Source: Pseudomonadota bacterium
GTDB lineage: Bacteria; Pseudomonadota; Alphaproteobacteria; Rickettsiales; SXRF01
Assembly (NCBI GenBank): GCA_038043465.1
Contig: JBBTBX010000006.1
Coordinates: 79,463 to 143,462 of the forward strand
Direction of reading: 5' to 3'
DNA length: 64,000 nt
Shown here: positions 6,926 through 26,567 of the stretch, piece after piece
Position numbering within the stretch: the first letter of the stretch is position 1
Layout: each line of letters opens with the position of its first letter
Program-made: the position numbers and the translations under genes
The notes under the pieces: model-generated
What the model was told of the DNA's origin: nothing
The model's database searches: none
Seen by the model: the letters and a program-made list of their open reading frames with translations, nothing else

Positions 6926-7156
6926 ATAAGTCCTTTCAAAATAGGATAACACTCAAGCGCAACGGGAACCCCATACGACTGGTGTTATCAGGTGAATAAT
7001 TTTTTTTGAAAAGATTAATATGCCTAGCCTATTAATCGCCTCGACCTTGTCGAGTTATAGTCAGCCCTCAGCCGACACATTATTAACTGCCCTTAGCAAT
7101 TGAAGATTAATGTACCATCTTTTGTATGGTATCGCAATAATAATTAATAATTGAGA

Positions 7157-8254: not shown

Positions 8255-11200
8255 TTATGATGGTAGTTCGAACAGTACTCCCACTACTTCTAACAGATTG
8301 CTAAGCCTTGGTAGACCATGAGTGCCATCAATACTCAAAATCTCGGCTGCAGTTGTGCCATCTGAATTTAAGCTCTCTAAAAGCAGCAGTTTATTCTTTA
8401 ACTGTAGACGTTTGAAGTAGCGAGCTCCGTTCTCGTCGATGGCAATAACCAGTCGACCATCCATTTTCTTCATATGCTCATTATCAAATGGCAAATCACG
8501 AGTAATCAGATATTGCCCATCCAGAGCAATAGGTTCAGCACTTCTGCCCTCTACTTTAAAGAGTCGAACATCCTTCAGTGCTTTTTCGAGAACAGAAAAG
8601 TTTTCCAGTGCAACCAGTTCAGCTGCTTCATTTTTTGGAGGAGTTGGTAGCAAATATGATGCAAAAATTGTTCCCACCACCTTCTTGCAATTGCGCTCAA
8701 TACTTTCTAGCGGAACAATAACTGGTTCAGGAACATTATATGGGTCAACGGATTGGCCACTCAGGATAGCAATTTGAGAATGGTCATCTGGTTGACTGTA
8801 ACGTCTCGCGAGCAAAGCATTTCCATGCGTAGCAACGACTAGATTGCGAGGATTAACTTTTGCATGATTACAGACAATTACAACATCTCCAATATTAGCT
8901 ATCGGATCAAAAGTTCCAGCAGCAAGCTGATAAACTTCGTGATTGGGCAGATTAATTTGTTGGAATGACTTCCATTCGGTTACCATGATTTCTCCGTCAC
9001 CAACACGACCATCTGTTTTCGCTGCAGCCGCGATTCCTGTTTGTTGCAGTTGTAATTTTTTCACCTCATCCTTAAAACCAGAAGGGAATTCAATTACATT
9101 ATCTGCCCAAGAGAATGTGCGTGGCTCACCATGAAACGATTCATACTTGTCATAAATATGGAAGGCTTCATGTATTTGTCTTTGCAATGTTTTTCCCCAA
9201 AAATCCTTAACATCAGAGGCCTCCGCCAAACCTATTGATTCATCATCTTTATGATGGGATTCATTAATTAGCTTTATGGGTTTACCTCCACCACCATTCA
9301 ATGTGTTGAAGAGACTAACGAATGCTTTTCTATTGAAAGGAGCAACATGCGCGTCTTGTAACCGCTTAAGTTCATTCTTGAGGGAGTCTAAACTCATATC
9401 GGGTATGGTAGGCCCTTCACCACGCAACATAAACTTGATTAGATCCTCGCAATAAATCCTCACATCGGAGATGTAATCACGCGCACGAGCATCATTGTTG
9501 TTGCTCTGAGCTTCATCTAAAACCCTCTGCAAACAGCCACCATTAACAATGGTGGCAACACCGGAGACTTTATTAACCCCGCCTATCAACCCTTGTTCCC
9601 CCTTCAGTTTTTCATGTTCTACGATGCATTGATAAAATTGTCGTTCATGGGTGGTGACTATCAATTGCATGTGTTGCGATTGATTTGGATTCAGATTTGC
9701 TAATCTGACAATTTCCTGCGCCCACTTTCTTTTATTGCGTGGGTCAAAAGTCGTTTGCGGGTCATCAAATACTACTAACGGGAATGGATTATATCCCAGA
9801 GTATCAAGCGTTTCTTCACGTAATGCCAAAATGAAAGACCATAAAATAGCTCTGAGCCAGGAGGTATTTGCTACCAACGCCGAGTTAATCGTTATGCCTT
9901 CTTCAAAGCTGCCCAAAACATTTACTAATTTTTTCTCTAGAGACGTATCCTCGTATTTTAATTTTTCACGCAGGTGTATTCTATCGAGTATGTCTTTAAT
10001 GCGTGTGGAAAGGCGAGCTATAGAGCTTGCAGTTTCAGCTCCAACCAAATTACGAAGTTCTTTGAGGGGCTCTAATGCTTTGGCGATTTTCTCTCGTAAT
10101 TCCTGCTCTTTTTGTATGACAGCCCATTTTGCAGTCGCATCCGCTGCTGCAGTAAGGTGCTTGGATAATGCGTCTAAAGGCTCGGCTTTTGCCAGCGCTT
10201 GCTCGAGGATAGTCAGCTGTCCTTCAATGCTTTCTGCGTCAAAAGTTCCATCGTCCTGTTTTTTACCTAGTACAGTGCTCCAGGCATTTACAAAAATCTC
10301 TCGATTCCCCCCCCACCATGTTACCAAGGCATCAAGTCTTTCTAGGGCATGCATTATACGGCGAAGATTTTGTGCCGATTCAGGTTCTTGCGTGTTGTTT
10401 TGGAACTGAGCATATGTGAACTGAGGCAACAATGCCTTCTGTGCTGCAACAATTCTTTTAGCACAGCCTGCTACGCCTGTTAGAACGTCATTAAATGGTG
10501 AATCTTCGCTGAATCTCTGCAGCACCGCTTCAGAAAAACTTTCCTTAGGATCCATAGTAACAAGCGTGTCTCGATGCTGTTTTATGGCTGATGGCAAAAG
10601 AGTGGTTAATTCCGCCTCAATTGACCGGCATACATCATCTATCTTTCTTTCCGCCGACATAGCCTGATTCTTTAACTCCGCTAATTCAGCGGCTAGCTTT
10701 TTTTGTTCTTCAGTTGAGAGGGCGGATAAACACAAGGGGCAATCGGTATTTTCATTATGCTCGTGCGGCATGATGTATGACTGAGCAGCCAAAGCCTTAA
10801 GACGGAACTTAGTATCCGCTTGCTGTTTGTTATGCCAAGATATGGCTGTTGCAAGAGTCGATCTTGCACTATTTATCGAGGCAGAGAGTTTTTTAAATTC
10901 TTCATTATCAGCAGCATCTTTTAAAGCAGCCCATGCCTCAAATACTATAATTCCTCTGGTTTTTTGATTTGCGTAGGCTCTAGCTGTTTCTACAGCTTTT
11001 TTTACTCTTTCTCTTCCGCCTGGAGTAGCCGTATCTATTTCTTGAGAAATCTCTGATTTTAATACCCCCAATTGATTCCCAGCCTGTGTGGAGAAATCCA
11101 ACGCAGCAGTCTGAAGGTTGACCACTGCATCCTTATGATTAAGTTCTATGTCTTTAGGTAAATCTACACTTAGCGTGGTGGCTAATTGGGTTGCAGCTTG

Positions 11201-12130
11201 TATTTTGTCATCATACTTATTTTTGTGAGTATCAATACCTTGATCTTTTCCATATTTCAAAAAGCGTCTGCCTGCATGTGTTAATACACCACACCCATCT
11301 GCAATATCAGCCAATTGATCAAGCCCAGTAAGCAGTTTTACGGCCTCATATAGAGATTGGCTTTTCTCGCCGAATCCAATTTTCGTTAATCGAGCAGGCA
11401 TTAAGAGGCCTGTTTCAATTAATTGAGGGGCCGAACTTAGTCTTTCATCAATCTCGACAGTTATGACTGGCGTTCCAGTGGCCTGGCAGGAAACTTGCCG
11501 ATATGCGGTGGCAATATCATTATTGCTATTCTTAAAGGTCAGACGCACCGAAACTTCTGCGGTTTTTTTCAGATCAGATACTTGAATTGGATAGGATACC
11601 ATTGGTGGCCATTTACCAATTTCTTTGCCATTTCCATCGTAGATAGGGGCATGTGTGCAATTATCTTCAATGGGGCCATCTTGATCTCGAATTCGCTTAC
11701 CCGTCAGCGTCCATAAAATCGCGCTTGCAAGCGAAGTTTTTCCTGAGCCGTTTTGTCCTTCCAGGCACCAATTGTTGCCACTTATCCATAAGTCGAAAGG
11801 CTTGCCGCCAAACTGAGTGAGCCCACCAAAACCTGACGCTTCGATTCTTTCCAGACGCCAAGACTCATTTTGACTGCCCGATTTTTCTGCGGACTCTTCA
11901 GCTGCAGGGTCATGCTTATCGTTATTCCACGCGTTAATAATTCCGGGAAACAGAGTTTCATCGCCTTGTGCAACCTTCTTAGAATCTTGTCCGAGCAGAT
12001 ACTCCATCAAGCGTCGCTGCGCGGGTAGATTTAGTGTTACATTGCCAGCTTTATGCTCAGCATATTTTGCCCACTTCAATTCCTTGCCGCTTAAAAGAGC
12101 AGTTATTGCTTCGCTTAATGAGATTGTCAT
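8255..12130 (-). CDS. Rad50/SbcC-like (AAA_13-type) ATPase with a CxxC hook, fused to two C-terminal LexA/S24-peptidase-like domains
   Basis: 1291 aa; ATG at 12130 with AAGGA upstream. Walker A GQNGSGKTSLASAILWTLTGKR; long helical middle region containing CPLC; Walker B-like PLVVFDDPQ followed by LIVTTHERQF. The C-terminus holds two repeats resembling S24: AAGTFDPIANIGDVVIV...LVVATHGNALLARRY and VEGRSAEPIALDGQYLI...DGRLVIAIDENGARYFKRL. Confidence 0.6.
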   Translation of the reverse strand: MTISLSEAITALLSGKELKWAKYAEHKAGNVTLNLPAQRRLMEYLLGQDSKKVAQGDETLFPGIINAWNNDKHDPAAEESAEKSGSQNESWRLERIEASGFGGLTQFGGKPFDLWISGNNWCLEGQNGSGKTSLASAILWTLTGKRIRDQDGPIEDNCTHAPIYDGNGKEIGKWPPMVSYPIQVSDLKKTAEVSVRLTFKNSNNDIATAYRQVSCQATGTPVITVEIDERLSSAPQLIETGLLMPARLTKIGFGEKSQSLYEAVKLLTGLDQLADIADGCGVLTHAGRRFLKYGKDQGIDTHKNKYDDKIQAATQLATTLSVDLPKDIELNHKDAVVNLQTAALDFSTQAGNQLGVLKSEISQEIDTATPGGRERVKKAVETARAYANQKTRGIIVFEAWAALKDAADNEEFKKLSASINSARSTLATAISWHNKQQADTKFRLKALAAQSYIMPHEHNENTDCPLCLSALSTEEQKKLAAELAELKNQAMSAERKIDDVCRSIEAELTTLLPSAIKQHRDTLVTMDPKESFSEAVLQRFSEDSPFNDVLTGVAGCAKRIVAAQKALLPQFTYAQFQNNTQEPESAQNLRRIMHALERLDALVTWWGGNREIFVNAWSTVLGKKQDDGTFDAESIEGQLTILEQALAKAEPLDALSKHLTAAADATAKWAVIQKEQELREKIAKALEPLKELRNLVGAETASSIARLSTRIKDILDRIHLREKLKYEDTSLEKKLVNVLGSFEEGITINSALVANTSWLRAILWSFILALREETLDTLGYNPFPLVVFDDPQTTFDPRNKRKWAQEIVRLANLNPNQSQHMQLIVTTHERQFYQCIVEHEKLKGEQGLIGGVNKVSGVATIVNGGCLQRVLDEAQSNNNDARARDYISDVRIYCEDLIKFMLRGEGPTIPDMSLDSLKNELKRLQDAHVAPFNRKAFVSLFNTLNGGGGKPIKLINESHHKDDESIGLAEASDVKDFWGKTLQRQIHEAFHIYDKYESFHGEPRTFSWADNVIEFPSGFKDEVKKLQLQQTGIAAAAKTDGRVGDGEIMVTEWKSFQQINLPNHEVYQLAAGTFDPIANIGDVVIVCNHAKVNPRNLVVATHGNALLARRYSQPDDHSQIAILSGQSVDPYNVPEPVIVPLESIERNCKKVVGTIFASYLLPTPPKNEAAELVALENFSVLEKALKDVRLFKVEGRSAEPIALDGQYLITRDLPFDNEHMKKMDGRLVIAIDENGARYFKRLQLKNKLLLLESLNSDGTTAAEILSIDGTHGLPRLSNLLEVVGVLFELPS

Positions 12131-12262: not shown

Positions 12263-12451
12263 ATGGACCACGATGAAATCATAACGGTTAAAGAGCTTGC
12301 GGAGTACCTGAAGATTGCAGAAAAAACTGCATACAGATTCCTTGCTGAAGGAACGATTCCAGGGTTTAAAGTGGGCGGTTCATGGCGGTTTCGTAAAAAG
12401 GAAATCGATGAGTGGATTGCTCGTCAGACCGAAAAAAGATTAAGTATATGA
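12263..12451 (+). CDS. Excisionase/MerR-type helix-turn-helix DNA-binding protein
   Basis: 62 aa. VKELAEYLKIAEKTAYRFLAEGTIPGFKVGGSWRFRKKEIDEWI is the typical excisionase-family HTH. Its stop overlaps the next start (ATGA). Confidence 0.75.
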   Translation: MDHDEIITVKELAEYLKIAEKTAYRFLAEGTIPGFKVGGSWRFRKKEIDEWIARQTEKRLSI

Positions 12452-15400
12452 GTGGAACATTTTACGAAAAGCCTATTCTGAACTCTCCCTACTCTGAGCC
12501 TATGATGCATCATGCGCTTGATGCAGAAGGACAGCCCACCGATAATCCACCGATTAAGGGGCGACGTAGATCTGAGCTAATAACTCCTGTTCCCAAGCCA
12601 CGAAAGCGTAAAAGAGAGTCTGAAGCTACTCAGACTAAAATGGAGCTCCATTCAGATGATGGTATATCGTCGGCTGAGCAGGAATATAATCCGACTCCAA
12701 TTATTAATGAAATTCGCTCGCATGTTGCTCAGTGGAGAAAACTTGCCAATCAAACTGGGTGGGGTGTAACTCCGGCTACAGCTAGGTTACTGCAGCATTG
12801 GAGACACCATGAGTTCCAGGGGATACGACCGTTTTTCTGTCAGATCGAAGCTGTTGAAACCATTATTTGGCTTACAGAAGTTGCGCGTAATCAGAAACAA
12901 TACCGGAGATTTTGGGAGCACATTAATGGCGCTAATGAGCAGGCCAATCCTGAACTAATAAGATTGGCCATGAAAATGGCTACAGGCGCAGGAAAAACCA
13001 CTGTTATGGCCATGCTCATGGCATGGCAAACGGTCAATGCTGTACGCTCTCCCTCAAGCAAGCTCTATACGAGGGGATTTCTTATTGTTTCTCCAGGAAT
13101 TACGATTCGTGACCGCTTGCGTGTGCTCTTGCCCAATGATCCTAACAGTTATTACAAATCCCGTGAATTGGTTCCGGCAGATATGCTGGACGATATCAAC
13201 AAAGCAAAAATCGTCATCACAAATTACCATGCCTTCCAGCTGCGTGAGACGATGGATACTAATAAGGTTGGCAAATCACTTCTTCAAGGTCGTGGTGAAG
13301 AACTCAAAACCCTTGAGACGGAAGGCCAGATGGTTCGACGCGTAGCAGAAGAGTTGATGGGAATTAAGAATATCGTTGTAATCAACGATGAAGCGCACCA
13401 CTGCTATCGTGAGAAACCGAATAACGATGAGTTGGAAGAACTTAAAGGGGAAGAAAAGCAAGAGGCAGAAAAAGAGAACAAAGCAGCCAGGTTGTGGATT
13501 AATGGTCTGGAAGCATTCAATAGAAAGCTATGTGTACGTGCGGTCTATGATCTTTCAGCCACCCCATTCTTTTTGAGGGGCTCTGGCTGGGCTGAAGGCA
13601 CGCTATTTCCATGGACTGTAAGTGATTTTTCACTAATTGATGCTATTGAGTGCGGCATTGTGAAGCTGCCACGTGTTCCAGTAGCAGACAATATTCCCGG
13701 TGAAGAAATGCCTATCTTCCGTAATCTGTGGGATCATATCGGCAAAGACATGCCTAAAAAAGGTAAAACCACTGGTGATCCGAAAGAAATTCCTGACAAA
13801 CTTAAAACCGCATTACACGCACTTTATAAGCATTATTCGGAAACTTTTGAGAAGTGGGAGCGTGAGGGAATAGAATCCCCACCAGTCTTTATCGTGGTGT
13901 GCAATAACACATCCACGTCTAGGTTGGTTTATGAATATGTTTCAGGTTGGACGCGCCCCAATGACGATGGCGAAGAAATCCTCGAACATAAGGGACATCT
14001 CGAGCTTTTCCGTAACTTTGATGAGCATGGCAACCCGTACTCGCGTCCCAACACTTTGCTCATTGATAGTTATCAGATTGAATCAGGTGTGTTGGACAAA
14101 AATTTCCGCGAAATGGCAGCAAAAGAGATTGATCTCTTTAAACGGGAAATGAAACAGCGTACAGGCGCAGGCGACATTGGAGAGATCTCTGATGCTGAAT
14201 TATTGCGTGAAGTAATGAACACTGTAGGAAAGAAAGGCAAACTTGGAGAACAGGTACGCTGCGTTGTATCAGTATCAATGCTGACGGAGGGTTGGGATAC
14301 CAATACAGTAACGCATATTCTTGGTGTCCGTGCTTTTGGCACGCAACTACTATGTGAGCAAGTAGTTGGGCGAGGCCTCCGCCGTTATTCATATGACCTT
14401 AACGATGAAGGCCTATTCAATGTCGAATATGCAGACATTATGGGTATTCCATTTGACTTCACGGCGAAACCACAGATAGCTCCTGTAAAGCCACCTAAAA
14501 AGACAACGCGGGTACATGCAGTGAAGGAACGCTCATCTTTAGAAATCATTTTCCCCAGAGTCACAGGCTATCGGGTCGATTTACCTGAAGAACGGTTTTT
14601 AGCAAAATTTACAGCAGATTCCACTCTGGTTTTAACGCCGGAATCTGTTGGTCCAGGGCAGACACTCATGGAAGGTATTGTAGGTGAAGGCGTAACCATA
14701 TCAGCAGCTGAAGCACAGGCGAAAAGGCCAAGCACTATCGCCTTCGATCTGGCGAAATTACTCATGTATAAGCATTTCAAAGACAAGGATGGCGAGCCGA
14801 AGCTCCATCTTTTTGGGCAGCTAAAGCGTATTGCTAGGCAGTGGATTGATGAAGGCTATCTGGTTTGCAAGGGTGATACCGGTGCATGGATGCTGGAATA
14901 TCTCAGCATTGGTGGTCAGGCAGCAGATCATATATACAATGCTATCGTCGATGGCACCGCTGATGAGAAGATAGTTAAGGCAGTACTAGACCCGTACAAC
15001 CCAAAATCATCCACCATGCATGTAGGATTCTCCACAACTAAAGAACTATATCAAACCGACCCGCAAAAATCTCATGTGAATTATGTAGTGATCGATAGCG
15101 ACTGGGAGGCAGAATTTGCACGCGTGGCAGAACAGCACCCCAAGGTCATATCTTATGTAAAGAACCAAGGTCTAGGGCTGGAAGTGCCATACAAAGACGG
15201 TGTTATGTCGCGCATATATATCCCTGATTTTATTGTTCAGATTGATGACGGGCATGGAAAGGATAATCCGCTAAACTTGGTCGTAGAGGTTAAAGGCTAT
15301 CGCCATGAGAATGTTAAGCTGAAATCTGAAACTATGCGAACGCAGTGGGTTCCGGGTGTAAATAATCTTGGAACATATGGTCGTTGGTCATTTGAAGAAT

Positions 15401-15486
15401 TCAGCGACGTATTTGAGATGGACAAAGAATTCAAAGCACTCATCGCAAGAGTTATAGAAAATCACAAAAAGACAGAGGCAGCGTAA
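12448..15486 (+). CDS. Type III restriction enzyme Res subunit (SF2 helicase plus C-terminal PD-(D/E)xK nuclease)
   Basis: Start placed at the ATG at 12448 (MSGTFYEKPILNSPY), which forms an ATGA overlap with the HTH gene. Walker A MATGAGKTTVMA; DEAH box INDEAHHC; helicase motif VI-like VVGRGLRR; C-terminal nuclease-like IPDFIV...LVVEVKGY. Confidence 0.85.
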   Translation: MSGTFYEKPILNSPYSEPMMHHALDAEGQPTDNPPIKGRRRSELITPVPKPRKRKRESEATQTKMELHSDDGISSAEQEYNPTPIINEIRSHVAQWRKLANQTGWGVTPATARLLQHWRHHEFQGIRPFFCQIEAVETIIWLTEVARNQKQYRRFWEHINGANEQANPELIRLAMKMATGAGKTTVMAMLMAWQTVNAVRSPSSKLYTRGFLIVSPGITIRDRLRVLLPNDPNSYYKSRELVPADMLDDINKAKIVITNYHAFQLRETMDTNKVGKSLLQGRGEELKTLETEGQMVRRVAEELMGIKNIVVINDEAHHCYREKPNNDELEELKGEEKQEAEKENKAARLWINGLEAFNRKLCVRAVYDLSATPFFLRGSGWAEGTLFPWTVSDFSLIDAIECGIVKLPRVPVADNIPGEEMPIFRNLWDHIGKDMPKKGKTTGDPKEIPDKLKTALHALYKHYSETFEKWEREGIESPPVFIVVCNNTSTSRLVYEYVSGWTRPNDDGEEILEHKGHLELFRNFDEHGNPYSRPNTLLIDSYQIESGVLDKNFREMAAKEIDLFKREMKQRTGAGDIGEISDAELLREVMNTVGKKGKLGEQVRCVVSVSMLTEGWDTNTVTHILGVRAFGTQLLCEQVVGRGLRRYSYDLNDEGLFNVEYADIMGIPFDFTAKPQIAPVKPPKKTTRVHAVKERSSLEIIFPRVTGYRVDLPEERFLAKFTADSTLVLTPESVGPGQTLMEGIVGEGVTISAAEAQAKRPSTIAFDLAKLLMYKHFKDKDGEPKLHLFGQLKRIARQWIDEGYLVCKGDTGAWMLEYLSIGGQAADHIYNAIVDGTADEKIVKAVLDPYNPKSSTMHVGFSTTKELYQTDPQKSHVNYVVIDSDWEAEFARVAEQHPKVISYVKNQGLGLEVPYKDGVMSRIYIPDFIVQIDDGHGKDNPLNLVVEVKGYRHENVKLKSETMRTQWVPGVNNLGTYGRWSFEEFSDVFEMDKEFKALIARVIENHKKTEAA

Positions 15487-18407
15487 TGGCGAAACAAACC
15501 AAAAAATTGAAGCAGGTCGAAACGCTGACGCATGATGAAGCTAAGCGCCGCAACATCCCCACCGCTGAATTACAATCTGCCGCGCAACGCGCTGAAGAAA
15601 TGTACCCATTTGCGCCAGTGACCTACCAGCGCAAAGAGCCGCTGCCTGAAGGTGCAACTCGCCCACGCGATGGAGACCTCGATCCGCAAATTATTTGGAA
15701 AGGCGCAACCCTTCGCCTGAATGCAGAACAGATTGAACAACTCACAAAAACAGGAAAGCTGGAAATTGGTGACGCGCAGCTAGTATGGCGCGGAAAAGAT
15801 CAGCAGGACTGGTCAGACCTCGTTGTGCAAGCACCACCGCTTTACATTCAGGAAAAAATTCACCCCAAGGCGATTATAGATGATCTGAAACGCCAGACTA
15901 AAGAACGCAAGGATGAACAATCAGACATTGTTGACCTTTTTGGCGATTTCAACGGCATTGACCTCGAAGCAAAAACAGAATTCTACCAGCATGATCAACA
16001 TTGGTCGAACCGGATGATTCTGGGTGATAGCCTGCAAGTGATGGCGAGCCTCGCCGAACGCGAAGGCCTGCGTGGACAGGTGCAGTGTATATTCTTTGAT
16101 CCACCCTATGGCATTAAATTCAATTCAAACTGGCAAGTTTCAACGCGTTCTCGTGACGTAAAAGACGGGCAGCGAGACTATCTTGCTCGCGAGCCAGAAG
16201 TTGTTAAAGCATTCCGCGACACATGGAAAGATGGCATTCATTCCTATCTTACCTATCTACGCGACCGCATGACCGCAATGCGTGATTTATTGAGTGAAAG
16301 TGGCTCAATATTTGTACAAATTGGAGATGAGAATGTTCATCGTGTTAGATCGGTAATGGATGAAGTTTTTGGAGAGAAAAATTTTGTGAATGAGATAGCA
16401 TTTGCAAAAACAACTTCTTCTACCAGTGGCGATCTTTCTGGGGTCTATGACATCGTAATTTGGTATTCAAGAAATAAGGCAAATCTTAAATATAGACAGC
16501 TATATAAGAGCAAAGTAGCAGGGGGTGATGGAGGCACTGGTTATACCAGAGTCAAGTTAGAAAAGGGTGAGGTCTTACCAGTAAGCCAGTTCAAAAATTC
16601 TTCAGACGAAATCAGCCTTCCCAAAGGTGCTACATTGATATTTCCTGATTCAATACGCTCACAAAGCCCGGGGTCGCGATATGATGTCCATTACTGTGGT
16701 GATTTATACCGCCCTGAACCAAACTATTGGAAAACAGATGAAAAGAATATGCAACGCCTTCTTAAGGCAGATCGCCTACATGCGACAAAAAACAATCTAT
16801 CTTATCTAAGGCGCTATGATGATTTTCCAGTTTATCCAATGTCAAATTTTTGGGCAGATACACTGGGGCAGAACCAATTTGGAGGAGATAAGATTTATGT
16901 AGTCCAGACAGGTTTAACGGTTGTTCAGCGCTGTATTTTAATGACAACAGACCCAGGAGATCTTGTTCTTGATCCAACCTGTGGTTCAGGAACAGCAGCA
17001 GTTGTCTCAGAGCAGTGGGGGCGACGCTGGATTACAATCGATACCTCTCGCGTAGCTCTGGCACTAGCGAGGGCTAGGTTAATGGGAGCACGCTATCCGT
17101 ATTACTATTTGATTGATAGCCAAGATGGGCAGAAGAAAGAACAAAAGATAAGCGGAAAAATTCAACCTGATACCCCAACCCATGGAGATATTCGTCAGGG
17201 GTTTGTTTATGAGCGTGCGCCGCATATCATGCTCAAAACCATTGCCAATAACGCTGAGATTGATGTTATCTGGGATAATTATCAGCAAAAGTTGGAACCA
17301 TTGCGTGAAGCGCTTAACAAAACTCTGGGCAAAAAGTGGCAAGAATGGGAAATGCCGCGTGAAGTAGCCGACGACTGGACGAAGGACGCAAAAGACGCTC
17401 ACGTTAAATGGTGGGATTTGCGTATAAAGCGTCAACAGGAAATTGATAAATCCGTCGCACAAAAAGCGGATGTAGAATTGCTCTATGATCGCCCATATGA
17501 AGATAATTCTAAAGTACGCGTCGCCGGTCCATTTACGGTGGAAAGCCTCTCGCCTCACCGTGTGGTGCCTGCGGATGAAGAAGAGCTGATTGAATTAGTT
17601 GATGCTGCTGACGGCAAGCGCAAGCGTAAAGAAATACCTTTGCATGACTTTACCAAGATGGTGATAGAGAATCTCAAATCAGCAGGCGTACATCAGGCAG
17701 CAAAAGATGATCGAATCACCTTCACTGCTATTGAAGGCTGGCCAGGTCATTGGATTGCTGCAGCAGGCCGTTTCATGGAGGGCGAAAAAGAGCGTCGCGC
17801 CGCAATCTTTATTGGTCCAGAGTTTGGCTCAGTCACACGTGCAGACCTGACCGCCGCTGCGCGTGAAGCGAATGATGCACGGTTTGATGTGCTGATCGCC
17901 TGTGGATTTAACTTCGATGCACATACTGGCGATATCACCAAGATGGGACCATTACCTATCCTTAAGGCAAAAATGAACCCAGACCTGCATATGTCGGAAG
18001 AACTCAAAAATACCGGCGCAGGAAACTTGTTCGTCGTATTCGGTGAACCAGATATTGCGTGGGATTTTGATGATGATGGTAATGTCGTGGTAGAAGTGCT
18101 GGGCATCGACGTATTTGATCCCAAAACTGGGGAAGTGCGTGCCAGCGGGAAAGACGATATTGCCGCGTGGTTCATTGATACGAATTATAACGAAGAAAGT
18201 TTCTTTGTCCGTCACGCTTATTTTATGGGAGCAAATGATCCGTATAAAGCGCTTAAAACCAGCTTGAAGGCAGAGATTGATAAAGAGGCTTGGGAAACGC
18301 TCTATCGTGATACATCTCGCCCATTCGCGCGGCCCAGCAATGGAAGGTTTGCCGTGAAGGTCATCAACCACTTCGGCGATGAAGTGATGAAAGTGTTTGG
18401 AGTATAG
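15486..18407 (+). CDS. Site-specific DNA methyltransferase (type III Mod-like, N6/N4 class) with a long C-terminal extension
   Basis: 973 aa; its ATG overlaps the res stop (TAATG). Motif IV is FFDPPYGIKF and motif I is VLDPTCGSGTAAV. About 400 aa after the core have no motif I recognise. Confidence 0.85.
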   Translation: MAKQTKKLKQVETLTHDEAKRRNIPTAELQSAAQRAEEMYPFAPVTYQRKEPLPEGATRPRDGDLDPQIIWKGATLRLNAEQIEQLTKTGKLEIGDAQLVWRGKDQQDWSDLVVQAPPLYIQEKIHPKAIIDDLKRQTKERKDEQSDIVDLFGDFNGIDLEAKTEFYQHDQHWSNRMILGDSLQVMASLAEREGLRGQVQCIFFDPPYGIKFNSNWQVSTRSRDVKDGQRDYLAREPEVVKAFRDTWKDGIHSYLTYLRDRMTAMRDLLSESGSIFVQIGDENVHRVRSVMDEVFGEKNFVNEIAFAKTTSSTSGDLSGVYDIVIWYSRNKANLKYRQLYKSKVAGGDGGTGYTRVKLEKGEVLPVSQFKNSSDEISLPKGATLIFPDSIRSQSPGSRYDVHYCGDLYRPEPNYWKTDEKNMQRLLKADRLHATKNNLSYLRRYDDFPVYPMSNFWADTLGQNQFGGDKIYVVQTGLTVVQRCILMTTDPGDLVLDPTCGSGTAAVVSEQWGRRWITIDTSRVALALARARLMGARYPYYYLIDSQDGQKKEQKISGKIQPDTPTHGDIRQGFVYERAPHIMLKTIANNAEIDVIWDNYQQKLEPLREALNKTLGKKWQEWEMPREVADDWTKDAKDAHVKWWDLRIKRQQEIDKSVAQKADVELLYDRPYEDNSKVRVAGPFTVESLSPHRVVPADEEELIELVDAADGKRKRKEIPLHDFTKMVIENLKSAGVHQAAKDDRITFTAIEGWPGHWIAAAGRFMEGEKERRAAIFIGPEFGSVTRADLTAAAREANDARFDVLIACGFNFDAHTGDITKMGPLPILKAKMNPDLHMSEELKNTGAGNLFVVFGEPDIAWDFDDDGNVVVEVLGIDVFDPKTGEVRASGKDDIAAWFIDTNYNEESFFVRHAYFMGANDPYKALKTSLKAEIDKEAWETLYRDTSRPFARPSNGRFAVKVINHFGDEVMKVFGV

Positions 18408-18416
18408 GGGAATAAA

Positions 18417-19115
18417 ATGGCACAATATATTGTTACTGACTTAACGAGATTCAATGCTGAAGAGCAAGTCTGCACAGCTGTGATTGACATGGATAGTGGG
18501 CAATGTTTAAGGCCGATGCCTTATCTAACCAGTAAAAACGTCGAGGAGTTGAATATGCACCCCGGTGCCATACTAAGAGGTGATATTTCATTAGATCCTT
18601 CGGCTGTGAATCCACATGTTGAGGATGCAACAAGGGGTAAATTAGAGTACCATGGACCTGCATCTGGAATAGATTTTAAAGCGGTCTTAGATCGCTCATT
18701 ATCTAATTCTGTTGAATTAGGTTTTGGTATAACATTAACTGAAAACCAAAAGCATATTCCTTTTGGAGAGTATGCTAATTGTTCGATTGTTACAGTCAAA
18801 ATATCGCCAGAAGCACTAAGTATTCACGAAGATCAATACAAACCAGGAAGGATCAAAGCTTCTTTTACTGACGCGGAAGGTCATTACTTCAGTTATTTGC
18901 CTATAACAGATAGAGGCTTCTATGACTACGCAAAGAAACATCAAGATGATGGTCAACTCAGAAGTGTTAGGCAGTTTATAAAATCACAGGCGGAATTATA
19001 TTTGAGAGTCGGTGTTAGTAGGCGGCATCAAAGTGGGAATAGAGACGGATATTGGATTCAGGTAAATGGGATATATACGTTTCCAGGTTTCTTTGAAGAA
19101 ATAAGGAAGTATTAA
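18417..19115 (+). CDS. Hypothetical protein, 232 aa, no recognised motif
   Basis: Long ORF 9 nt after the mod stop and 1 nt before the next start. It is same-strand, tightly packed, and its amino-acid composition looks normal. Confidence 0.7.
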   Translation: MAQYIVTDLTRFNAEEQVCTAVIDMDSGQCLRPMPYLTSKNVEELNMHPGAILRGDISLDPSAVNPHVEDATRGKLEYHGPASGIDFKAVLDRSLSNSVELGFGITLTENQKHIPFGEYANCSIVTVKISPEALSIHEDQYKPGRIKASFTDAEGHYFSYLPITDRGFYDYAKKHQDDGQLRSVRQFIKSQAELYLRVGVSRRHQSGNRDGYWIQVNGIYTFPGFFEEIRKY

Positions 19116-19116
19116 C

Positions 19117-19746
19117 ATGAACAATACTATTTTCACGGTGGGCCATTCAACGCATGAGATCGGGAAATTTATGGATTTGCTGAAAATGCATGGCATTACA
19201 GCTATTTGTGATGTGCGCTCTTCGCCCTACAGTCGATTCAATTCTCAATACAACAGAGAAAATTTTAAATCCAGCCTCTGGGAAAATGACATTAAGTACG
19301 TTTTTCTGGGAAAAGAGCTTGGCGCTCGCAGTGACGATCCAAATTGCTATCAGGCTGGCAAAGTTCAATATGATCTACTTGCCAAAACAGAACTCTTTCA
19401 AAAGGGACTAGAACGGGTACTTCAAGGTGCAAAAGATTTTAATATAGCATTGGTTTGCGCAGAAAAAGATCCAATTGAATGCCACCGAACCATACTTGTT
19501 TCCAGGGAACTTGAAAGAAAGGGTTGCTCAATTTCTCATATTTTAGAGAATGGTGATATTCAGACTCATGATGAACTTGTTGCTAGACTAATCAAAGAGA
19601 TTAATAGTGGTCAAGCCCAAGATTTATTTATGACAGAAGTAGAAATTCGTAATCAAGCTTATAGAAAACAGGCAGATAAAATTTGTTATGCACTTCCAGA
19701 AGAGGAAGAAAATAAAGCATTAACAAAGATGGAGGCTACAAAATGA
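19117..19746 (+). CDS. DUF488-family protein (long form, 209 aa)
   Basis: IFTVGHSTHEIGKFMDLLKMHGITAICDVRSSPYSRF ... VFLGKELG ... ALVCAEKDPIECHRTILV matches the DUF488 signature as I remember it. Confidence 0.75.
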   Translation: MNNTIFTVGHSTHEIGKFMDLLKMHGITAICDVRSSPYSRFNSQYNRENFKSSLWENDIKYVFLGKELGARSDDPNCYQAGKVQYDLLAKTELFQKGLERVLQGAKDFNIALVCAEKDPIECHRTILVSRELERKGCSISHILENGDIQTHDELVARLIKEINSGQAQDLFMTEVEIRNQAYRKQADKICYALPEEEENKALTKMEATK

Positions 19747-20174
19747 AAATATTTACTATAGGCTTCACAAAAACAACGGCACAAAGTTTTTTTGACCGAC
19801 TAAGGAAATCTGGAGCAAAAAAAATAATTGACGTTCGTCTTAATAATGTTTCCCAATTAGCTGGCTTTGCCAAACAAGATGATCTTAAATACTTCGCAAA
19901 GGAGATTTGCTCAGTAAATTACAGGCACCTCCCAGAGCTAGCCCCAACCAAAGAAATGTTAGAACATTATAAAAAAAATAAAGGCTCTTGGGAAGAATAT
20001 GAAAAACGATTCAATGATCTAATGGCGCAACGCAAAATTGAACAGATTGATAGAGATATTATTGATGGTGGTTGTTTATTATGCAGTGAGGATAAGCCAC
20101 ACTTTTGCCATCGTCGATTGGTGGCTGAATATTTAAAGGACAAGTGGCATGATTTAGATATTGTACATCTTTAA
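19743..20174 (+). CDS. DUF488-family protein (short form, 143 aa)
   Basis: MKIFTIGFTKTTAQSFFDRLRKSGAKKIIDVRLNN ... LLCSEDKPHFCHRRLVAEYL. It has an ATGA overlap with the preceding DUF488 gene. Confidence 0.75.
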   Translation: MKIFTIGFTKTTAQSFFDRLRKSGAKKIIDVRLNNVSQLAGFAKQDDLKYFAKEICSVNYRHLPELAPTKEMLEHYKKNKGSWEEYEKRFNDLMAQRKIEQIDRDIIDGGCLLCSEDKPHFCHRRLVAEYLKDKWHDLDIVHL

Positions 20175-20204
20175 CTAATAATAAAATTTTGAAAAAATAA
20201 TCTT

Positions 20205-22295
20205 ATGCAGTTCCGGATCGCAGACAGTTTTACAAAGGCATTAGGCAAATTGGCTGCCCAAGAGCAATCTGCTGTCAAAATTACTGTGTTTGATCTCCAG
20301 CAGAACCCATCCGCGCCTGGGCTGCAATTCCATCGGATTGATAAATCTAAAGATGAGAATTTTTGGTCTATTCGTGCAAATCGGGACATCCGTTTGATTG
20401 TACATAAGACAGCAGATAGTTTCTTAATTTGTTATGTTGATCATCATGATGATGCCTATAAATGGGCAGAACGCAGGCGCATCGAAACACATCCAAAAAC
20501 GGGTGCGGCGCAAATTGTAGAAGTTCGTGAGCTCGTTCAAGAGATCGCGGTACCAGTTTATTCCCAGACAGGCGAAGTCGTCCCCACATTGCAGCCTAAA
20601 ACTATTGAAGCAGCGTTATTCATCAACTTGACAAAAGATGATCTGCTTGATGTTGGCGTTCCAGAAGACTGGATTGATGATGTTCAGCAATCCACAGAGG
20701 ATAAATTTTTTGAACTTACCAATCATATTCCTGCCGAAGCAGCTGAAGCTCTCTTAAATTACGCCACCACTGGAAAACTGCTGAAACCAGAGGCAGTACA
20801 GCTAAATGCTAGTCCCTTTGAGCACCCTGATGCACAGCGTCGCTTCCGTGTATTGGATAACAAAGAAGAATTGGAAAGAGCCTTGGAATATCCATGGGAT
20901 AAGTGGGCAATATTTCTACACCCAACTCAGCGTAACGTAGTTGAGCAAAAATTTAGCGGCCCTGCACGCGTTTCAGGTACTGCTGGTACAGGAAAAACAG
21001 TGGTTGCACTGCACCGCACTGCAAATATCCTAAAAAATAATCATGATGCTAGAATTCTTCTGACGACATTTTCTTCCCCATTGGCAAATGCGTTAAAACA
21101 CAAACTGAAATTGCTAACTGGCATTGATAGCGAGGATGGATCGAAGGTTAGCATCCGTTCTTTTGAGGGAGTGGCACAAGATCTATTTACCTTGGCTTAT
21201 GGACATACACCACGCGCTGCATCCAAAGATCAGGTGAAGGGTGTTCTAGAGTCTGCCAAAAAAGAACTGGGTGATACTGAATTCACTATCCGTTTCCTTG
21301 TTTCCGAATGGCAGAGCGTAATAGATGCATGGCAAATTGAGAGCCTAGAAGCCTACCGCGATGTGCCACGTCTAGGCCGAAAAAATAGACTTGGCTCTAT
21401 GCAGCGTGAACGGGTATGGCCAATTTTTACGAAGGCCAGAGAAATATTTCAATCACAAGGCATGGATACCTGGTCTGGTATTTTTTCAGCTGTGACGAAA
21501 CACTATGCAGATAAAGCTCATAAGCCATTTACGCATATTATCGTTGATGAAGCGCAGGATTTAGGAGTGCCAGAACTACGTATGCTCGCTGCGATCTCTG
21601 AATATACAGCCGATGCTTTGTTCTTTGCGGGTGACTTAGGGCAGCGGATTTTCCAGGAGCCATTCTCTTGGAAAACTCTTGGTATCGATATTCGTGGCCG
21701 CTCTCAAACATTAAAGGTTAATTACAGAACATCTCATCAAATACGCCAAAAGGCAGATAGGTTATTGCCTGCAACTGTTCGTGACGTAGATGGAAACGAA
21801 GAAGATCGCAGAGGCGCGGTTTCTGTTTTTAATGGCCCTGAGCCAGTAGTTACTATCTGCACGGACATCAATGACGAAAAGTTGGCAATTGCGAAATGGA
21901 TTAAACAGATCGTGTCTGAGGGCGTGGAGCCTGACGAAATTGGATTGTTCGTTAGGAGTAACGATGAACTCTTACGTGCAAGAAATGCTGCGAAGGAGGC
22001 TGGTTACAAGGTTTTAGAACTGTCTGATCGCGTAGAGGAGCGTAATAGCCGTATTTCGATTGGAACCATGCACCTTGCGAAAGGACTGGAGTTTAAGGCT
22101 GTAGGAGTTATTGCATGCGATGATGATATTTTGCCAAAACAAGATCGAATTGAAAACGTTGCAGATGAGGCGGAGTTAGATGAGGTTTATGATACCGAAA
22201 GGCATCTGTTCTATGTGGCCTGTACTCGTGCAAGAGATCGTTTATTCATTTCTGGTGTAGATCCTGGATCTGAATTTATAGCTGATATTAATTAA
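20205..22295 (+). CDS. UvrD/Rep-like SF1 helicase with an N-terminal RelE/ParE-toxin-like domain
   Basis: 696 aa. Walker A GTAGTGKTVVALHR; Walker B IIVDEAQDL; C-terminal HLFYVACTRARDRLFISG. The first ~90 aa (FWSIRANRDIRLIVHKTADSFLICYVDHHDDAYKW) resemble the RelE/ParE core motif. Confidence 0.8.
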   Translation: MQFRIADSFTKALGKLAAQEQSAVKITVFDLQQNPSAPGLQFHRIDKSKDENFWSIRANRDIRLIVHKTADSFLICYVDHHDDAYKWAERRRIETHPKTGAAQIVEVRELVQEIAVPVYSQTGEVVPTLQPKTIEAALFINLTKDDLLDVGVPEDWIDDVQQSTEDKFFELTNHIPAEAAEALLNYATTGKLLKPEAVQLNASPFEHPDAQRRFRVLDNKEELERALEYPWDKWAIFLHPTQRNVVEQKFSGPARVSGTAGTGKTVVALHRTANILKNNHDARILLTTFSSPLANALKHKLKLLTGIDSEDGSKVSIRSFEGVAQDLFTLAYGHTPRAASKDQVKGVLESAKKELGDTEFTIRFLVSEWQSVIDAWQIESLEAYRDVPRLGRKNRLGSMQRERVWPIFTKAREIFQSQGMDTWSGIFSAVTKHYADKAHKPFTHIIVDEAQDLGVPELRMLAAISEYTADALFFAGDLGQRIFQEPFSWKTLGIDIRGRSQTLKVNYRTSHQIRQKADRLLPATVRDVDGNEEDRRGAVSVFNGPEPVVTICTDINDEKLAIAKWIKQIVSEGVEPDEIGLFVRSNDELLRARNAAKEAGYKVLELSDRVEERNSRISIGTMHLAKGLEFKAVGVIACDDDILPKQDRIENVADEAELDEVYDTERHLFYVACTRARDRLFISGVDPGSEFIADIN

Positions 22296-22518: not shown

Positions 22519-23403
22519 TCATAGGGAAACATCACCATTGCCCAATAAGGTCATTTCGGTAATTTTCTTAAATTCCGTTAAATATTCTGGGTACTGTTGA
22601 GTAATGTATTTCACTATACGAGTATTACTAAGTAGGCTTGATAGGTAAGTTTTAGAAACCGCTAGAATTAGTACATTGGGGCCAAAGCTCTCTTCAATTA
22701 AGCGGTATTGGTTATGCAAACTCCCCATTTCCGCTTCCATCCGCGATATTTGCTCATCAGTCAGTCCTTTAATTTTCTTTGGTTGTGATGGATCAAGCAA
22801 TTGCATTTTCGGTGTTGCCGCTAATAATGCCCTGATGTAAGAAAATGAGTAAATATTAGCATCACGCATTAGAGTGGCAGCCTCAATCTGCCGTACTGGC
22901 TTCATTCTCCGTAATACGCTGAATACATTAGCGGCTACCATTTTATCCTTAAGCAATTCTACTGCTTCCGGACAAATACCCTTAAGTAAGTCACGCTTAC
23001 GGATAATATTGTTCACGTTGAGATTGAGTGCCCTCGCCAGCTTTTCTTCAGAAACCCCGCGTTTTATTGCCGTCAGTATCATACGATGTTCCTGAATAGT
23101 AGATATGCGGCTGATATGCTTATTGTAAGTATAGGTTTCGTCATCAGTCGATACTAGGCAGGCGGTTTCCTTCTCACCAACTTCTTTCAGGGCTTCAATT
23201 CGTGAATGCCCGTCGAGAAGCATATATTTTCTCTGACCTTTGCTAGGTGGTGCTACCACAGGAAGCTCTATGATACCGACCTCTTTTATAGAAGTCAGTA
23301 TCTGCTTATATTTTGCACCATCACGCATTGCCGGAGTAATGATCTTAAGAGGTGAAATATCCTCTAATTTTAACGTGACGGTAGTAGTTTCAAAACCCAA
23401 CAT
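22519..23403 (-). CDS. ParB/Srx N-terminal domain protein (second ParB-like gene of the recombinase trio)
   Basis: 294 aa. LKIITPAMRDGAKYKQILTSIKEVGIIELPVVAP...YMLLDGHSRIEALKEVG is ParB-N-like, followed by an HTH-like segment GVSEEKLARALNLNVNNIIRKRDLL. Confidence 0.7.
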   Translation of the reverse strand: MLGFETTTVTLKLEDISPLKIITPAMRDGAKYKQILTSIKEVGIIELPVVAPPSKGQRKYMLLDGHSRIEALKEVGEKETACLVSTDDETYTYNKHISRISTIQEHRMILTAIKRGVSEEKLARALNLNVNNIIRKRDLLKGICPEAVELLKDKMVAANVFSVLRRMKPVRQIEAATLMRDANIYSFSYIRALLAATPKMQLLDPSQPKKIKGLTDEQISRMEAEMGSLHNQYRLIEESFGPNVLILAVSKTYLSSLLSNTRIVKYITQQYPEYLTEFKKITEMTLLGNGDVSL

Positions 23404-23456
23404 ATAAGATGCTCACCATTTTTATTTTGTTAATTTTTTTATATTTTTAATTGGTG

Positions 23457-24347
23457 TTATTTACCTGATATCAATGTTGCCAGTTGTTTAGGCATGGTAT
23501 CCAGACTCTCCGCTCGCAGGAGGGTAGTAAAATGTTCTTGCTGCATCAGACTACGCATAGCTTCCTTAAGAAACATCAGCCGGTTATTTACCAAGTCCGC
23601 TTTACGTTCCACCAACTGCTTGCGGGCTACTTCGCGTTTATAGGTCCTGATAATATTCTGACCGAAATCAGAAACATTGTTCCCTGAATGAGTCTTGCTT
23701 CTTGCACCACGCAGTGTTTTTCCAGCACGCCTACGATCTTCAAAGAGGCGCTTGGCAGCCATAAACTTACTACCGCTTAGATGGCCTTTTTCATAGGCTT
23801 CTTGGAGAACTTCTTGCTCGTTTTTAGGAGAACTGGCAATATTTATAGCAAGCATAATAGGGATATTGCCCGATTCAACTGCTGCGACTAATCGTTCCTC
23901 GCCCTGTTCAAGCAATGTAATGATATTATTTATATAATCTGTGCTGTGTCCTATCTTGGCGGCAATGGCTTTTGCATTATATCCTTGCCTGAGCAATATT
24001 TCCACGCCTTGCAATAAATCCATTGCTCGGTGTTTACGCCGCGCAACATTTTCTACCAAGCTCATGATAAGTGCTTTTTCCTCACTAGCATCAATTATCA
24101 TGGCAGGAATCATTTTTTGGCCACAAGCCATGAATGCTTCCAGTCTTCCTTGCCCGCATACTAAATCATAGTCTTTACCTCCTGTTTTAGAATGACAGGC
24201 TGTAACAGTGATAGGACGTTTAAGCCCAACCTTGGCAATATTTTGCACAATGCCCTCGAACAGTTTAGGATTACGGTAACGGGGATTCATAATATTGATC
24301 TGATCTACTGGAATCATGCCGATAGTTGGCGTGTTTTTTACAGTCAT
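23457..24347 (-). CDS. ParB-like partition/nuclease domain protein
   Basis: 296 aa. IPVDQINIMNPRYRNPKLFEGIVQNIAKVGLKRPITV...DLVCGQGRLEAFMACG followed by ENVARR and an HTH (AKAIAAKIGHSTDYINNIITLL). Its start overlaps the recombinase stop (ATGA). Confidence 0.75.
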   Translation of the reverse strand: MTVKNTPTIGMIPVDQINIMNPRYRNPKLFEGIVQNIAKVGLKRPITVTACHSKTGGKDYDLVCGQGRLEAFMACGQKMIPAMIIDASEEKALIMSLVENVARRKHRAMDLLQGVEILLRQGYNAKAIAAKIGHSTDYINNIITLLEQGEERLVAAVESGNIPIMLAINIASSPKNEQEVLQEAYEKGHLSGSKFMAAKRLFEDRRRAGKTLRGARSKTHSGNNVSDFGQNIIRTYKREVARKQLVERKADLVNNRLMFLKEAMRSLMQQEHFTTLLRAESLDTMPKQLATLISGK

Positions 24348-25906: not shown

Positions 25907-25976
25907 ATATTAGGAATGTCATCGAGATGCCAATTGGTTGGCTGATTACCGTTAATTATAGTAACGGAGAATCATT

Positions 25977-26567
25977 ATGTCAGTCCCAAAAAATGACCAA
26001 ATTTTAACCACGATTATTACCGATATAGAACTAACTAATTTGATTAAGAAAATACTACGTCAGGAATATAAAGATCAAAGCTCAGCGGTGAAAAGAATCA
26101 GCAATAAAACCGGTATTGAATTACGAGCAATTCGCGATTGGTACGAAGGTCGCAAACCCCCTAAATCTATACATTTGCTATTACTTGCCAGTCATTATAA
26201 TGAGATTTTTAACCAGCTAATAATTTTGACTGGCAATTCACATTTATTGGAGTTGTATGAACAAAAAATTAGCTTTCAAAATCTGCTTTCAAAAATTAGC
26301 AAAAGTGCAGAATCTGATGAAATTTATAGTGCAAGATATTGCACTATAAATGTGGGAGTCGATTTTGAAAAAGCTAAAAATTTGAATAAACGCCAATTAT
26401 GGTATTTGGGATTGTTACAAAATGGGCATAAAGTAAAAATTGCCGATATAATGGTATTTTGGAAAGTATCGGCTCGCACAGCTAAATATGATATATCAAT
26501 GCTTGCCAAACAGGGGCTTGTGCAATTTGTTGGTTCTCGCAAAATCGGGCATCATAAATCCATATGA
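25977..26567 (+). CDS. Putative DNA-binding protein (N-terminal HTH-like, C-terminal winged-helix-like)
   Basis: 196 aa, divergent from recombinase 2. HTH-like segments: SAVKRISNKTGIELRAIRDWYEGRKPP and IADIMVFWKVSARTAKYDISMLAKQGLV. This is a weak motif-level call. Confidence 0.45.
   Translation: MSVPKNDQILTTIITDIELTNLIKKILRQEYKDQSSAVKRISNKTGIELRAIRDWYEGRKPPKSIHLLLLASHYNEIFNQLIILTGNSHLLELYEQKISFQNLLSKISKSAESDEIYSARYCTINVGVDFEKAKNLNKRQLWYLGLLQNGHKVKIADIMVFWKVSARTAKYDISMLAKQGLVQFVGSRKIGHHKSI

Follow-up and report, generated by a model that had tools for sequence, protein, structure and literature searches.

A type III-like restriction-modification operon that probably hosts a separate three-gene candidate defence cassette

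We analyzed a cluster of seven genes in a 64,000-nucleotide stretch of DNA, hereafter the window, from an alphaproteobacterium of the order Rickettsiales (assembly GCA_038043465.1, contig JBBTBX010000006.1, positions 79,463 to 143,462). An initial annotation of this DNA had described the cluster as a restriction-modification (R-M) pair resembling type III systems, extended by further genes into a single transcription unit. Our results indicate that the cluster is probably a composite operon, in which a type III-like R-M system and a helper helicase host a separate three-gene candidate defence cassette. Two observations are central to this interpretation. The UvrD-like helicase encoded by the last gene is a recurrent third gene of the BPTD_3080-type Res-Mod family to which the R-M pair belongs, and the three genes between Mod and the helicase, which encode a protein with dual oligonucleotide/oligosaccharide-binding (OB) folds, DuOB, and two DUF488 proteins, form a self-standing, independently mobile cassette. 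The first gene of the cluster, encoding a small helix-turn-helix (HTH) protein, is locus-specific and lies outside of the family core. Intact catalytic motifs are retained in Res, in Mod, in the helicase, and in each of the two DUF488 proteins, whereas all biochemical activities, co-transcription, and an anti-phage function of the cluster are inferred.

The affiliation of the R-M pair is most evident from Res, which matches the NCBIfam model of the BPTD_3080 family restriction endonuclease (NF046055) with 1320 bits, relative to a cut-off of 800. This match is full-length, with Res residues 7-998 aligned on model positions 2-969 of 970. In Pfam, ResIII covers residues 132-322 and RE_endonuc residues 874-966. 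The Walker A (G180-T184), DEAH (314-318), SAT (370-372), and QxxGRxxRR (638-646) motifs are invariant in the family alignment, and a C-terminal nuclease motif, PDF...VVEVKG, can be read in the window protein. Res is thus predicted to combine a superfamily 2 (SF2) DEAH helicase with a PD-(D/E)XK (PD..EVK) nuclease at its C-terminus. Models of type III Res proteins gave weak local matches (E 4e-7 for NF012027 and about 1e-6 for the PADLOC REase_III), and four REase_III models were the only ones in PADLOC to match Res. The partner protein, Mod, matches the PADLOC model MTase_III PDLC03632 over its full length with 1296 bits and carries the Pfam N6_N4_Mtase domain at residues 199-526. Its DPPY motif (205-208) and the FxGxG-type motif for binding S-adenosylmethionine (SAM), DPTCGSGTT (496-503), are also invariant in the family alignment, and the family profile matches structures of the EcoP15I Mod (4zcf, E 9e-21; 6k0w, E 9e-23). 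Mod belongs to the beta-class N6/N4 DNA methyltransferases, with DPPY preceding the SAM motif. The 447 C-terminal residues following position 526 have no Pfam match, and this stretch of about 450 aa is conserved family-wide. Both features of the pair remarked upon in the initial annotation, namely the type III-like character with Res ahead of Mod and the long unassigned C-terminal part of Mod, were supported. The same gene order is found in all relatives, and the C-terminal part is conserved across the family alignment.

The restriction side of the analysis was based upon 10 plasmid and 80 metagenome loci, within an overall comparison set of about 110 related loci. The metagenome loci were drawn from a scan with the Mod alignment, in which at least 580 related stretches were confirmed and 80 loci of these compared. 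Res homologues were found in 43 plasmid records, and ten annotated neighborhoods were inspected. Across this set, a common arrangement is apparent: Res, a first gap (slot 1), Mod, a second gap (slot 2), and the helicase. The helicase gene is present in 25 of the 36 loci having at least 6 kb of sequence after Mod, with identities of 49-71%, and where slot 2 is empty, the Mod stop codon overlaps the helicase ATG. On plasmids, helicase homologues of at least 47% identity were found in records that also hold a BPTD_3080-type Res in every case that could be cross-checked. The initial annotation had made its proposal dependent upon co-occurrence of the Res-Mod pair with the downstream genes; such co-occurrence is seen for the helicase, but not for the DuOB/DUF488 trio, which is found in only one of the roughly 90 related operons. 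The window helicase carries the Pfam domains UvrD-helicase and UvrD_C, and its Walker A (258-265), DExQD (448-452), and TRAR (674-677) motifs are invariant in the alignment. The N-terminal segment of about 100 aa (20205-20516) is conserved as well and shows weak similarity to HigB-like proteins (E 0.007) and to RelE3 (3bpq, E 0.039). More distant relatives, which share 29-36% identity over the full length including the N-terminal domain, are encoded by the last gene of another operon found on E. coli IncFIB and Thermus plasmids, where a type IIG-like enzyme is followed by a DruE-like helicase of 1800-2100 aa and then by the UvrD-like helicase (8974-11088 in locus L116 and 8989-10995 in L117). 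Since the helicase family also ends these type IIG and DruE-like operons, it seems to be an accessory that recurs among restriction-like systems based on methylation.

Both gaps of the operon accept additional genes. Slot 1 reaches 300 bp or more in 31 of 76 loci, while slot 2, which ranges from 5 bp to 5.2 kb, does so in 41 of 54 and is no longer than 36 bp in 13. When slot 2 is occupied, an overlap with the Mod stop codon is often seen for the first cargo gene. The plasmid loci illustrate this variability. The P. avellanae plasmid encodes Res-Mod-helicase with both gaps empty, the Gemmobacter plasmid has one small gene in each gap, the first gap of the Rhizobium plasmid contains a single gene and its second gap two genes, and the Sphingomonas plasmid has a DUF3883 gene together with a small gene. 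In Picosynechococcus pAQ5, a UPF0175/DUF3368 pair is located in the Res-Mod gap, and on the Methylomagnum plasmid pRS11DPr6 (L030, 15684-18192), a cyclic oligonucleotide-based antiphage signaling system (CBASS) directly follows Mod in an operon without the helicase. From about 90 loci, 219 cargo open reading frames (ORFs) were collected, which fall into 187 clusters, many of them without a Pfam match. Among cargo ORFs of at least 100 aa, 84 of 93 are co-directional with the operon, compared to 32 of 67 in control regions downstream of Mod lacking the helicase. The identified cargo includes GmrSD, AAA_21/AAA_15 ATPases with RloB, Fic, HepT, UPF0175, RmuC, YhcG-type nucleases, HerA, CBASS (patatin, AGS_C), AEP-TOTE with reverse transcriptase, cytidine deaminase, and toxin–antitoxin pairs, and PADLOC matches among the cargo include HEC-06, AriA, PtuA, and SspE. 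No conserved recombination site was visible by inspection at the slot boundaries, and the sequence beside the helicase start is cargo-specific. Several individual cargos were recorded as well. A cytidine deaminase fused to HATPase_c_4 recurs in slot 1 of five loci (e.g., L053 1284-2777) and an ORF6N protein in slot 1 of four, a 1716-aa AEP-TOTE primase/reverse transcriptase fusion occupies slot 2 of L091 (12799-17949), and the CBASS pair of the Methylomagnum plasmid consists of CapV, a cGAMP-activated phospholipase, and a CD-NTase, a nucleotidyltransferase.

The distribution of the DuOB/DUF488 trio differs from that of the helicase. One genome per species was scanned with the DuOB alignment, yielding 20 loci, the ORFs of which were compared by tblastn and clustering. 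DuOB and then a short DUF488 are encoded in 18 of these 20 loci, and the remaining two contain only a truncated DuOB. The third cassette gene is a long DUF488 of the window type in six loci and an mSLOG-DUF4326 fusion in 12. Upstream sequence of 3 kb or more is available for 15 genome loci, and in 14 of these the cassette lies outside of a window-type operon. Its flanks are unrelated between loci and comprise integrases, transposases, OLD/AAA_21 ATPases, HipA, a type ISP restriction enzyme, an Mrr-like nuclease, and ArdC, while some DuOB cassettes adjoin housekeeping genes (sirohaem synthase, short-chain dehydrogenase, TGT, and PrmA). It is this occurrence in unrelated contexts, nearly always outside of a window-type operon, that identifies the trio as a self-standing cassette. 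The context of the window recurs in a single genome locus, a Planctomycetaceae metagenome-assembled genome (L005), in the order Mod-DuOB-DUF488-DUF488-helicase, with identities to the window of 75% for Mod, 71% for the helicase, and 59-73% for the cassette proteins. No DuOB was found among the other Res-Mod loci surveyed, one of which (L096) has a single DUF488-like gene after Mod. The cassette genes also differ in composition from their hosts, with a GC content of 0.35-0.39 (0.29-0.31 at third codon positions) versus 0.44-0.46 (0.36-0.42) for Res, Mod, and the helicase. Viral contigs hold only two DuOB loci, so the cassette is not mainly phage-borne. In the window, then, the cassette is placed between core genes of a host system outside of which it is also found, and it is by these two properties that embedded genes are recognized. 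The commoner type of third gene, the mSLOG-DUF4326 fusion (e.g., L007 11147-11752 and 11 other genome loci), combines a nucleotide-sensor-like domain with a phosphatase-like domain. One locus, L018, contains two different DuOB genes within a single cassette.

With regard to the cassette proteins, the first was listed as unknown in the initial annotation. Its match to Pfam DuOB is below the cut-off (23 bits versus 27; E 7e-5). Homologues sharing 55-77% identity number 369, and the majority of them carry a precomputed assignment to PF22557. The AlphaFold model (predicted local distance difference test score, pLDDT, 88.5) consists of two beta-barrels. DuOB may bind single-stranded nucleic acid or DNA ends. 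The long DUF488 protein matches Pfam DUF488 with 85 bits and PADLOC PDC-M45B with 275 bits; it has kept the C..E...CHR motif and has a C-terminal tail of about 80 aa without assignment. It shares 24% identity with the short DUF488 protein, with the motif LVCAEKDPIECHR aligned. The short protein matches Pfam DUF488 (88 bits), DUF488-N3a (42 bits), and PADLOC PDC-M45C (241 bits). It falls within the "active N3a" subclade, and its Cys/His/Arg motif, CLLCSE..PHxCHR, is invariant in the alignment; it is presumed to be the catalytic subunit. Its structural model (pLDDT 86.8) matches the fold of phage DUF488 proteins (E 7e-5). We take DUF488 to belong to the RapZ-C/DUF488/DUF4326 clade within the rhodanese-phosphatase superfamily, a placement with which weak fold matches agree. 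Burroughs and Aravind reportedly defined this clade in 2023 and predicted that DNA-end-processing enzymes are among its members. For DUF4326, which takes the place of a partner in the other type of cassette, a role in processing terminal phosphates on the ribose of ADP-ribose derivatives has been proposed (PMC9503650). With the sole exception of this proposal, our literature search returned nothing on the function of DUF488, DuOB, PDC-M45, BPTD_3080, or mSLOG.

The organization of the cluster itself is compact (Table 1). The seven ORFs span 12263-22295 and are all encoded on the + strand, in agreement with the seven co-directional genes listed in the initial annotation, and each of the junctions described there was located in the sequence. 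These are an ATGA overlap at 12448-12451 between the HTH and Res genes, TAATG at 15484-15488 between Res and Mod, a 9-nt gap (18408-18416) between Mod and the 232-aa DuOB gene, a 1-nt gap (position 19116) between the latter and the first DUF488 gene, a further ATGA overlap at 19743-19746 between the two DUF488 genes, and an AT-rich gap of 30 nt (20175-20204) ahead of the helicase. Tight, overlapping junctions are also seen in related operons. Since both these junctions and the Mod-DuOB-DUF488-DUF488-helicase order recur in relatives, the packing is backed independently of the window. Promoter and terminator scans of the cluster performed at chance level (18 found versus 22.5 expected and 10 versus 9.5, respectively). 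The Res ORF has its mechanical start at a GTG (12412), upstream of the ATG used here. As for the first gene, the HTH protein matches Pfam HTH_17 with 66 bits and PADLOC mad1, and it narrowly exceeds the cut-off of the NCBIfam model antiphage_MADS1 (82.1 versus 80 bits). No homologue of it was found upstream of Res in any of the 54 other loci checked. It is probably a local transcriptional regulator.

Table 1. Features of the seven-gene cluster in the window.
Feature	Position	Strand	Length	Remarks
MAD1-like HTH_17 gene	12263-12451	+	62 aa	Pfam, NCBIfam, PADLOC
Res	12448-15486	+	1012 aa, counted from ATG	BPTD_3080 family
Mod	15486-18407	+	973 aa	N6_N4_Mtase
Slot 2, Mod stop to helicase start	18408-20204	+		filled by the three-gene cassette
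DuOB gene	18417-19115	+	232 aa	first cassette gene
Long DUF488 gene	19117-19746	+	209 aa	
Short DUF488 gene	19743-20174	+	143 aa	
UvrD-like helicase gene	20205-22295	+	696 aa	

The window is part of a groundwater metagenome contig (ENA ERZ1292633, 468 kb). When examining the surroundings of the cluster, it is evident that it resides within a stretch of lower GC content (0.437 versus 0.50 beyond about 32.6 kb). This stretch starts after a tRNA-Ala(GGC) gene, which is followed by genes for a large serine recombinase, for DUF2924 and DUF5681 proteins, for a fusion of ParB with a methylase, and for a GIY-YIG protein (2804-7879). A second large serine recombinase (24344-25906) is found alongside two RepB/ParB genes within 22519-32314, and a second ParB and GIY-YIG set is located at 29905-32314. 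Because two large serine recombinases together with ParB/RepB-like and GIY-YIG genes follow tRNA-Ala, the stretch is probably made up of one or two integrative elements, with two in tandem being favored. A search for direct repeats of at least 25 nt flanking the island found none. The low-GC region has at its right edge a 126-aa ORF (32683-33063) that matches only the first approximately 40 of 713 AAA_13 profile positions and is possibly what is left of a gene at the boundary of an element. Divergent from the HTH gene, the - strand encodes an SMC/Rad50-like ATPase of 1291 aa that has an S24 (LexA-like) peptidase domain at its C-terminus (8255-12130); such a fusion is uncommon, and its matches to LmuB are weak. 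The DNA of the region had no match among E. coli genomes.

Based upon these features, several inferences can be made regarding how such an operon might function. Mod would methylate adenine (or N4-cytosine) at recognition sites and thereby mark self DNA, while Res would cut unmarked DNA in an ATP-dependent manner via its DEAH motor and PD..EVK nuclease. The helicase, normally translationally coupled to Mod, may act at restriction complexes or cut ends, where it would unwind the DNA or clear it. The cassette in slot 2 would provide a second, autonomous layer of defence, in which the tandem OB domains of DuOB might present single-stranded DNA or DNA ends to the Cys/His/Arg DUF488 enzymes. These in turn could act on the terminal phosphate or ribose-phosphate of a nucleic acid end or a nucleotide-derived molecule, either removing this group or transferring it, an activity suggested by the DUF4326 proposal (PMC9503650) together with the phosphatase-like fold. 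The locally acquired MAD1-like HTH protein probably represses a shared promoter, and embedding would presumably ensure that the cassette is both co-transferred and co-expressed with the restriction system. The suggestion of the initial annotation that the extra genes form a second immunity layer is plausible, but a single added block of four downstream genes was not supported, as the helicase is common in the family and the trio is found in only one of about 90 related operons.

Several results weigh against this interpretation, or at least against parts of it. Res has no sequence or profile match to any solved structure in the PDB, EcoP15I Res included, so the type III-like label stands upon domain architecture and Mod. 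The helicase is missing from 11 of the 36 loci as well as from a more distant Res clade (at most 46% identity), and is therefore not obligatory. PDB sequence searches with DuOB and DUF488 returned no match, and fold searches with both returned nothing at E <=0.001; the structures that DuOB resembles below significance are weakly matching OB proteins (Teb1, RPA70N, and SSB), and those that the short DUF488 resembles are PTP, PRL, and PFA-DSP phosphatases, in addition to rhodanese, DUF4326, and RapZ-C. The PADLOC models for the first gene of the candidate system PDC-M45, termed PDC-M45A, do not match the window DuOB even at E values up to 10, whereas they do match the canonical DuOB of L018 (131 bits), and an hhalign comparison of the window-type DuOB profile with canonical DuOB yielded nothing significant. 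By these comparisons, the window DuOB belongs to a subfamily other than that of the four PDC-M45A models. Judging from its sequence matches, the window cassette is best described as a variant of PDC-M45, which itself has the status of a candidate. Lastly, L005 carries this cassette in the corresponding slot, which amounts to stable co-inheritance, and such co-inheritance is compatible with functional coupling. Such coupling could go as far as one integrated seven-gene system, with DuOB, the DUF488 proteins, and the helicase serving as accessory subunits that process Res-made ends and do not work alone; end modification might, for example, block the repair of cut phage DNA. The tight, overlapping junctions throughout the cluster and the retention of the Mod-DuOB-DUF488-DUF488-helicase order in L005 at 59-75% identity both speak for an integrated system of this kind, as does the reported prediction of DNA-end-processing enzymes in the DUF488 clade. 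We nevertheless regard it as quite improbable, given that the trio is missing from about 89 of the 90 related operons and occurs in unrelated contexts in 14 of the 15 genome loci with enough upstream sequence, that the same slot is filled by many unrelated cargos, and that the GC content of the cassette is unlike that of its host genes. The HTH gene is not conserved either, and with the trio in a single related operon and the HTH gene in none of 54 loci, the conception of the seven genes as one conserved system could not be sustained.

A looser form of coupling is conceivable as well. The cassette could be of autonomous origin, yet be held inactive by the restriction complex and fire when a phage anti-restriction protein disables Res or Mod, comparable to PrrC in the EcoprrI type I system. 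We consider such a guard or back-up role unlikely. PrrC displays a similar embedding pattern, being found almost exclusively inside type I systems (bioRxiv 10.1101/2024.01.29.577857), the cargo is co-directional with and translationally coupled to Mod, and the cassette has been stably co-inherited in two diverged operons. However, unlike PrrC, the cassette mostly occurs without this host, and the cargo found in sister operons is too diverse for a common sensing interface. Both an integrated system and a guard are accordingly less likely than two separate layers of defence within a composite operon. A further alternative would deny the cassette any immune function, making it instead a module for nucleic acid repair or nucleotide metabolism, or a selfish passenger in a recombination-permissive gap. 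The copies located beside sirohaem synthase, short-chain dehydrogenase, TGT, and PrmA genes would fit with this, as would the very wide distribution of DUF488 proteins (at least 8000 homologues) and the presence of the fold in phages. Yet the other neighbors of the cassette are integrases, OLD/AAA_21 ATPases, HipA, the type ISP enzyme, the Mrr-like nuclease, and ArdC, its distribution is patchy across phyla at 55-77% identity, and the identified slot cargo of sister operons includes several known defence genes. A non-immune cassette thus seems improbable too, and a composite operon hosting a candidate defence cassette is the reading we prefer.

A broader proposal follows from the family survey, which we advance tentatively: BPTD_3080-type Res-Mod(-helicase) operons may constitute a widespread, undescribed two-slot platform that carries other defence genes, comparable to Hma or type I systems, with the DuOB/DUF488 cassette as a new kind of effector and the RelE-like UvrD helicase as a shared accessory. 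Within such a platform, the cassette might act as a Cys-dependent phosphatase-like enzyme upon nucleic acid ends or ribose-phosphate adducts, guided by the tandem-OB protein. If the platform proposal is correct, its largely uncharacterized cargo, which in about 90 loci amounts to 187 clusters, could serve as a source of new defence genes. Annotation should not handle the cluster as one system, since the helicase goes with Res-Mod and the trio stands apart. Because both embedded and free copies of the cassette exist, it is also an apt test case for the involvement of DUF488, a very common domain, in virus-host conflict. The importance of these findings would increase with confirmation of a family-wide platform and of the DUF488 chemistry. 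A literature search of limited scope turned up no publication dealing with the BPTD_3080 family, nor any that describes embedding in type III-like systems.

Among the known systems, type III R-M as exemplified by EcoP15I is one of those closest to the cluster. The window Mod is a beta-class methylase with DPPY before the SAM motif and has a profile match to EcoP15I Mod, while in Res a DEAH helicase at the N-terminus and a PD-(D/E)XK nuclease at the C-terminus occupy the same relative positions. However, type III systems consist of two genes with mod upstream of res, whereas in the window and all of its relatives res precedes mod. Mod of the window additionally has its conserved C-terminal half of about 450 aa, a UvrD-like helicase recurs as the third gene, and there are two cargo slots. 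Other methylation-based systems share parts of this design. MANTIS (Gao_RL) and MADS likewise combine a methyltransferase and a helicase-nuclease with additional ATPases, and the first gene of the window exceeds the NCBIfam cut-off for MAD1, in common with MADS. Even so, MADS was rejected, as mad2 to mad8 match none of the seven genes and the upstream divergent ATPase has only weak P-loop matches to mad3/mad8. MANTIS/Gao_RL was rejected on gene content, with no Gao_RL match listed for the core genes (among the best 25 families for Mod and the helicase), and in contrast to both systems, the window Mod is type III-like rather than PglX-like. Hma, which is composed of a helicase, an m5C methyltransferase, and an ATPase, was rejected because the window Mod is of the DPPY N6/N4 type; no Hma model is among the PADLOC matches listed for Res, Mod, and the helicase. 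The overall layout also has a close parallel in the RptR-regulated island, a type I R-M system of seven ORFs with an embedded DarTG2 and the regulator first (PMC12255303). The window similarly has an operon-like layout of seven ORFs, a small DNA-binding regulator in first position, and a second, candidate defence system inside an R-M system, but it differs in restriction type, in regulator family (HTH_17/MAD1-like in the window), and in the embedded system.

The most instructive parallels concern embedding itself. Defence genes nested in Hma, BREX, DISARM, and type I R-M systems have been used for discovery under the principle of "guilt-by-embedding" (Payne et al. 2024, bioRxiv 10.1101/2024.01.29.577857). 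As in those hosts, the extra genes of the window are located between genes of a multi-gene, methylation-based system, and like the published cargo, that of the BPTD_3080-type operons is varied, consists for the most part of defence-related or unknown genes, and occurs outside of the host as well, with some families, such as HEC-06/GmrSD-like, common to both sets. PDC-M45 is one of 145 candidates obtained in this manner, its source hosts being BREX, DISARM, and type I systems, and corresponds to the three-gene cassette CAS_00153 in the order A>>B>>C (bioRxiv 10.1101/2024.01.29.577857). The window cassette similarly has three genes in the same order, its adjacent DUF488 genes are matched by the B and C models (275 and 241 bits), and the A models are themselves DuOB-family, although the window DuOB lies outside of their subfamily. 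The principal distinction is in the host, as none of those used by Payne et al. (Hma, BREX, DISARM, or type I) is type III-like. The BPTD_3080-type operon is thus a new host family for the published pattern of embedded defence, with a conserved helicase and two slots of its own, and by extending that pattern to a type III-like family in which insertions occupy two fixed positions, it offers a searchable anchor for unknown immune genes.

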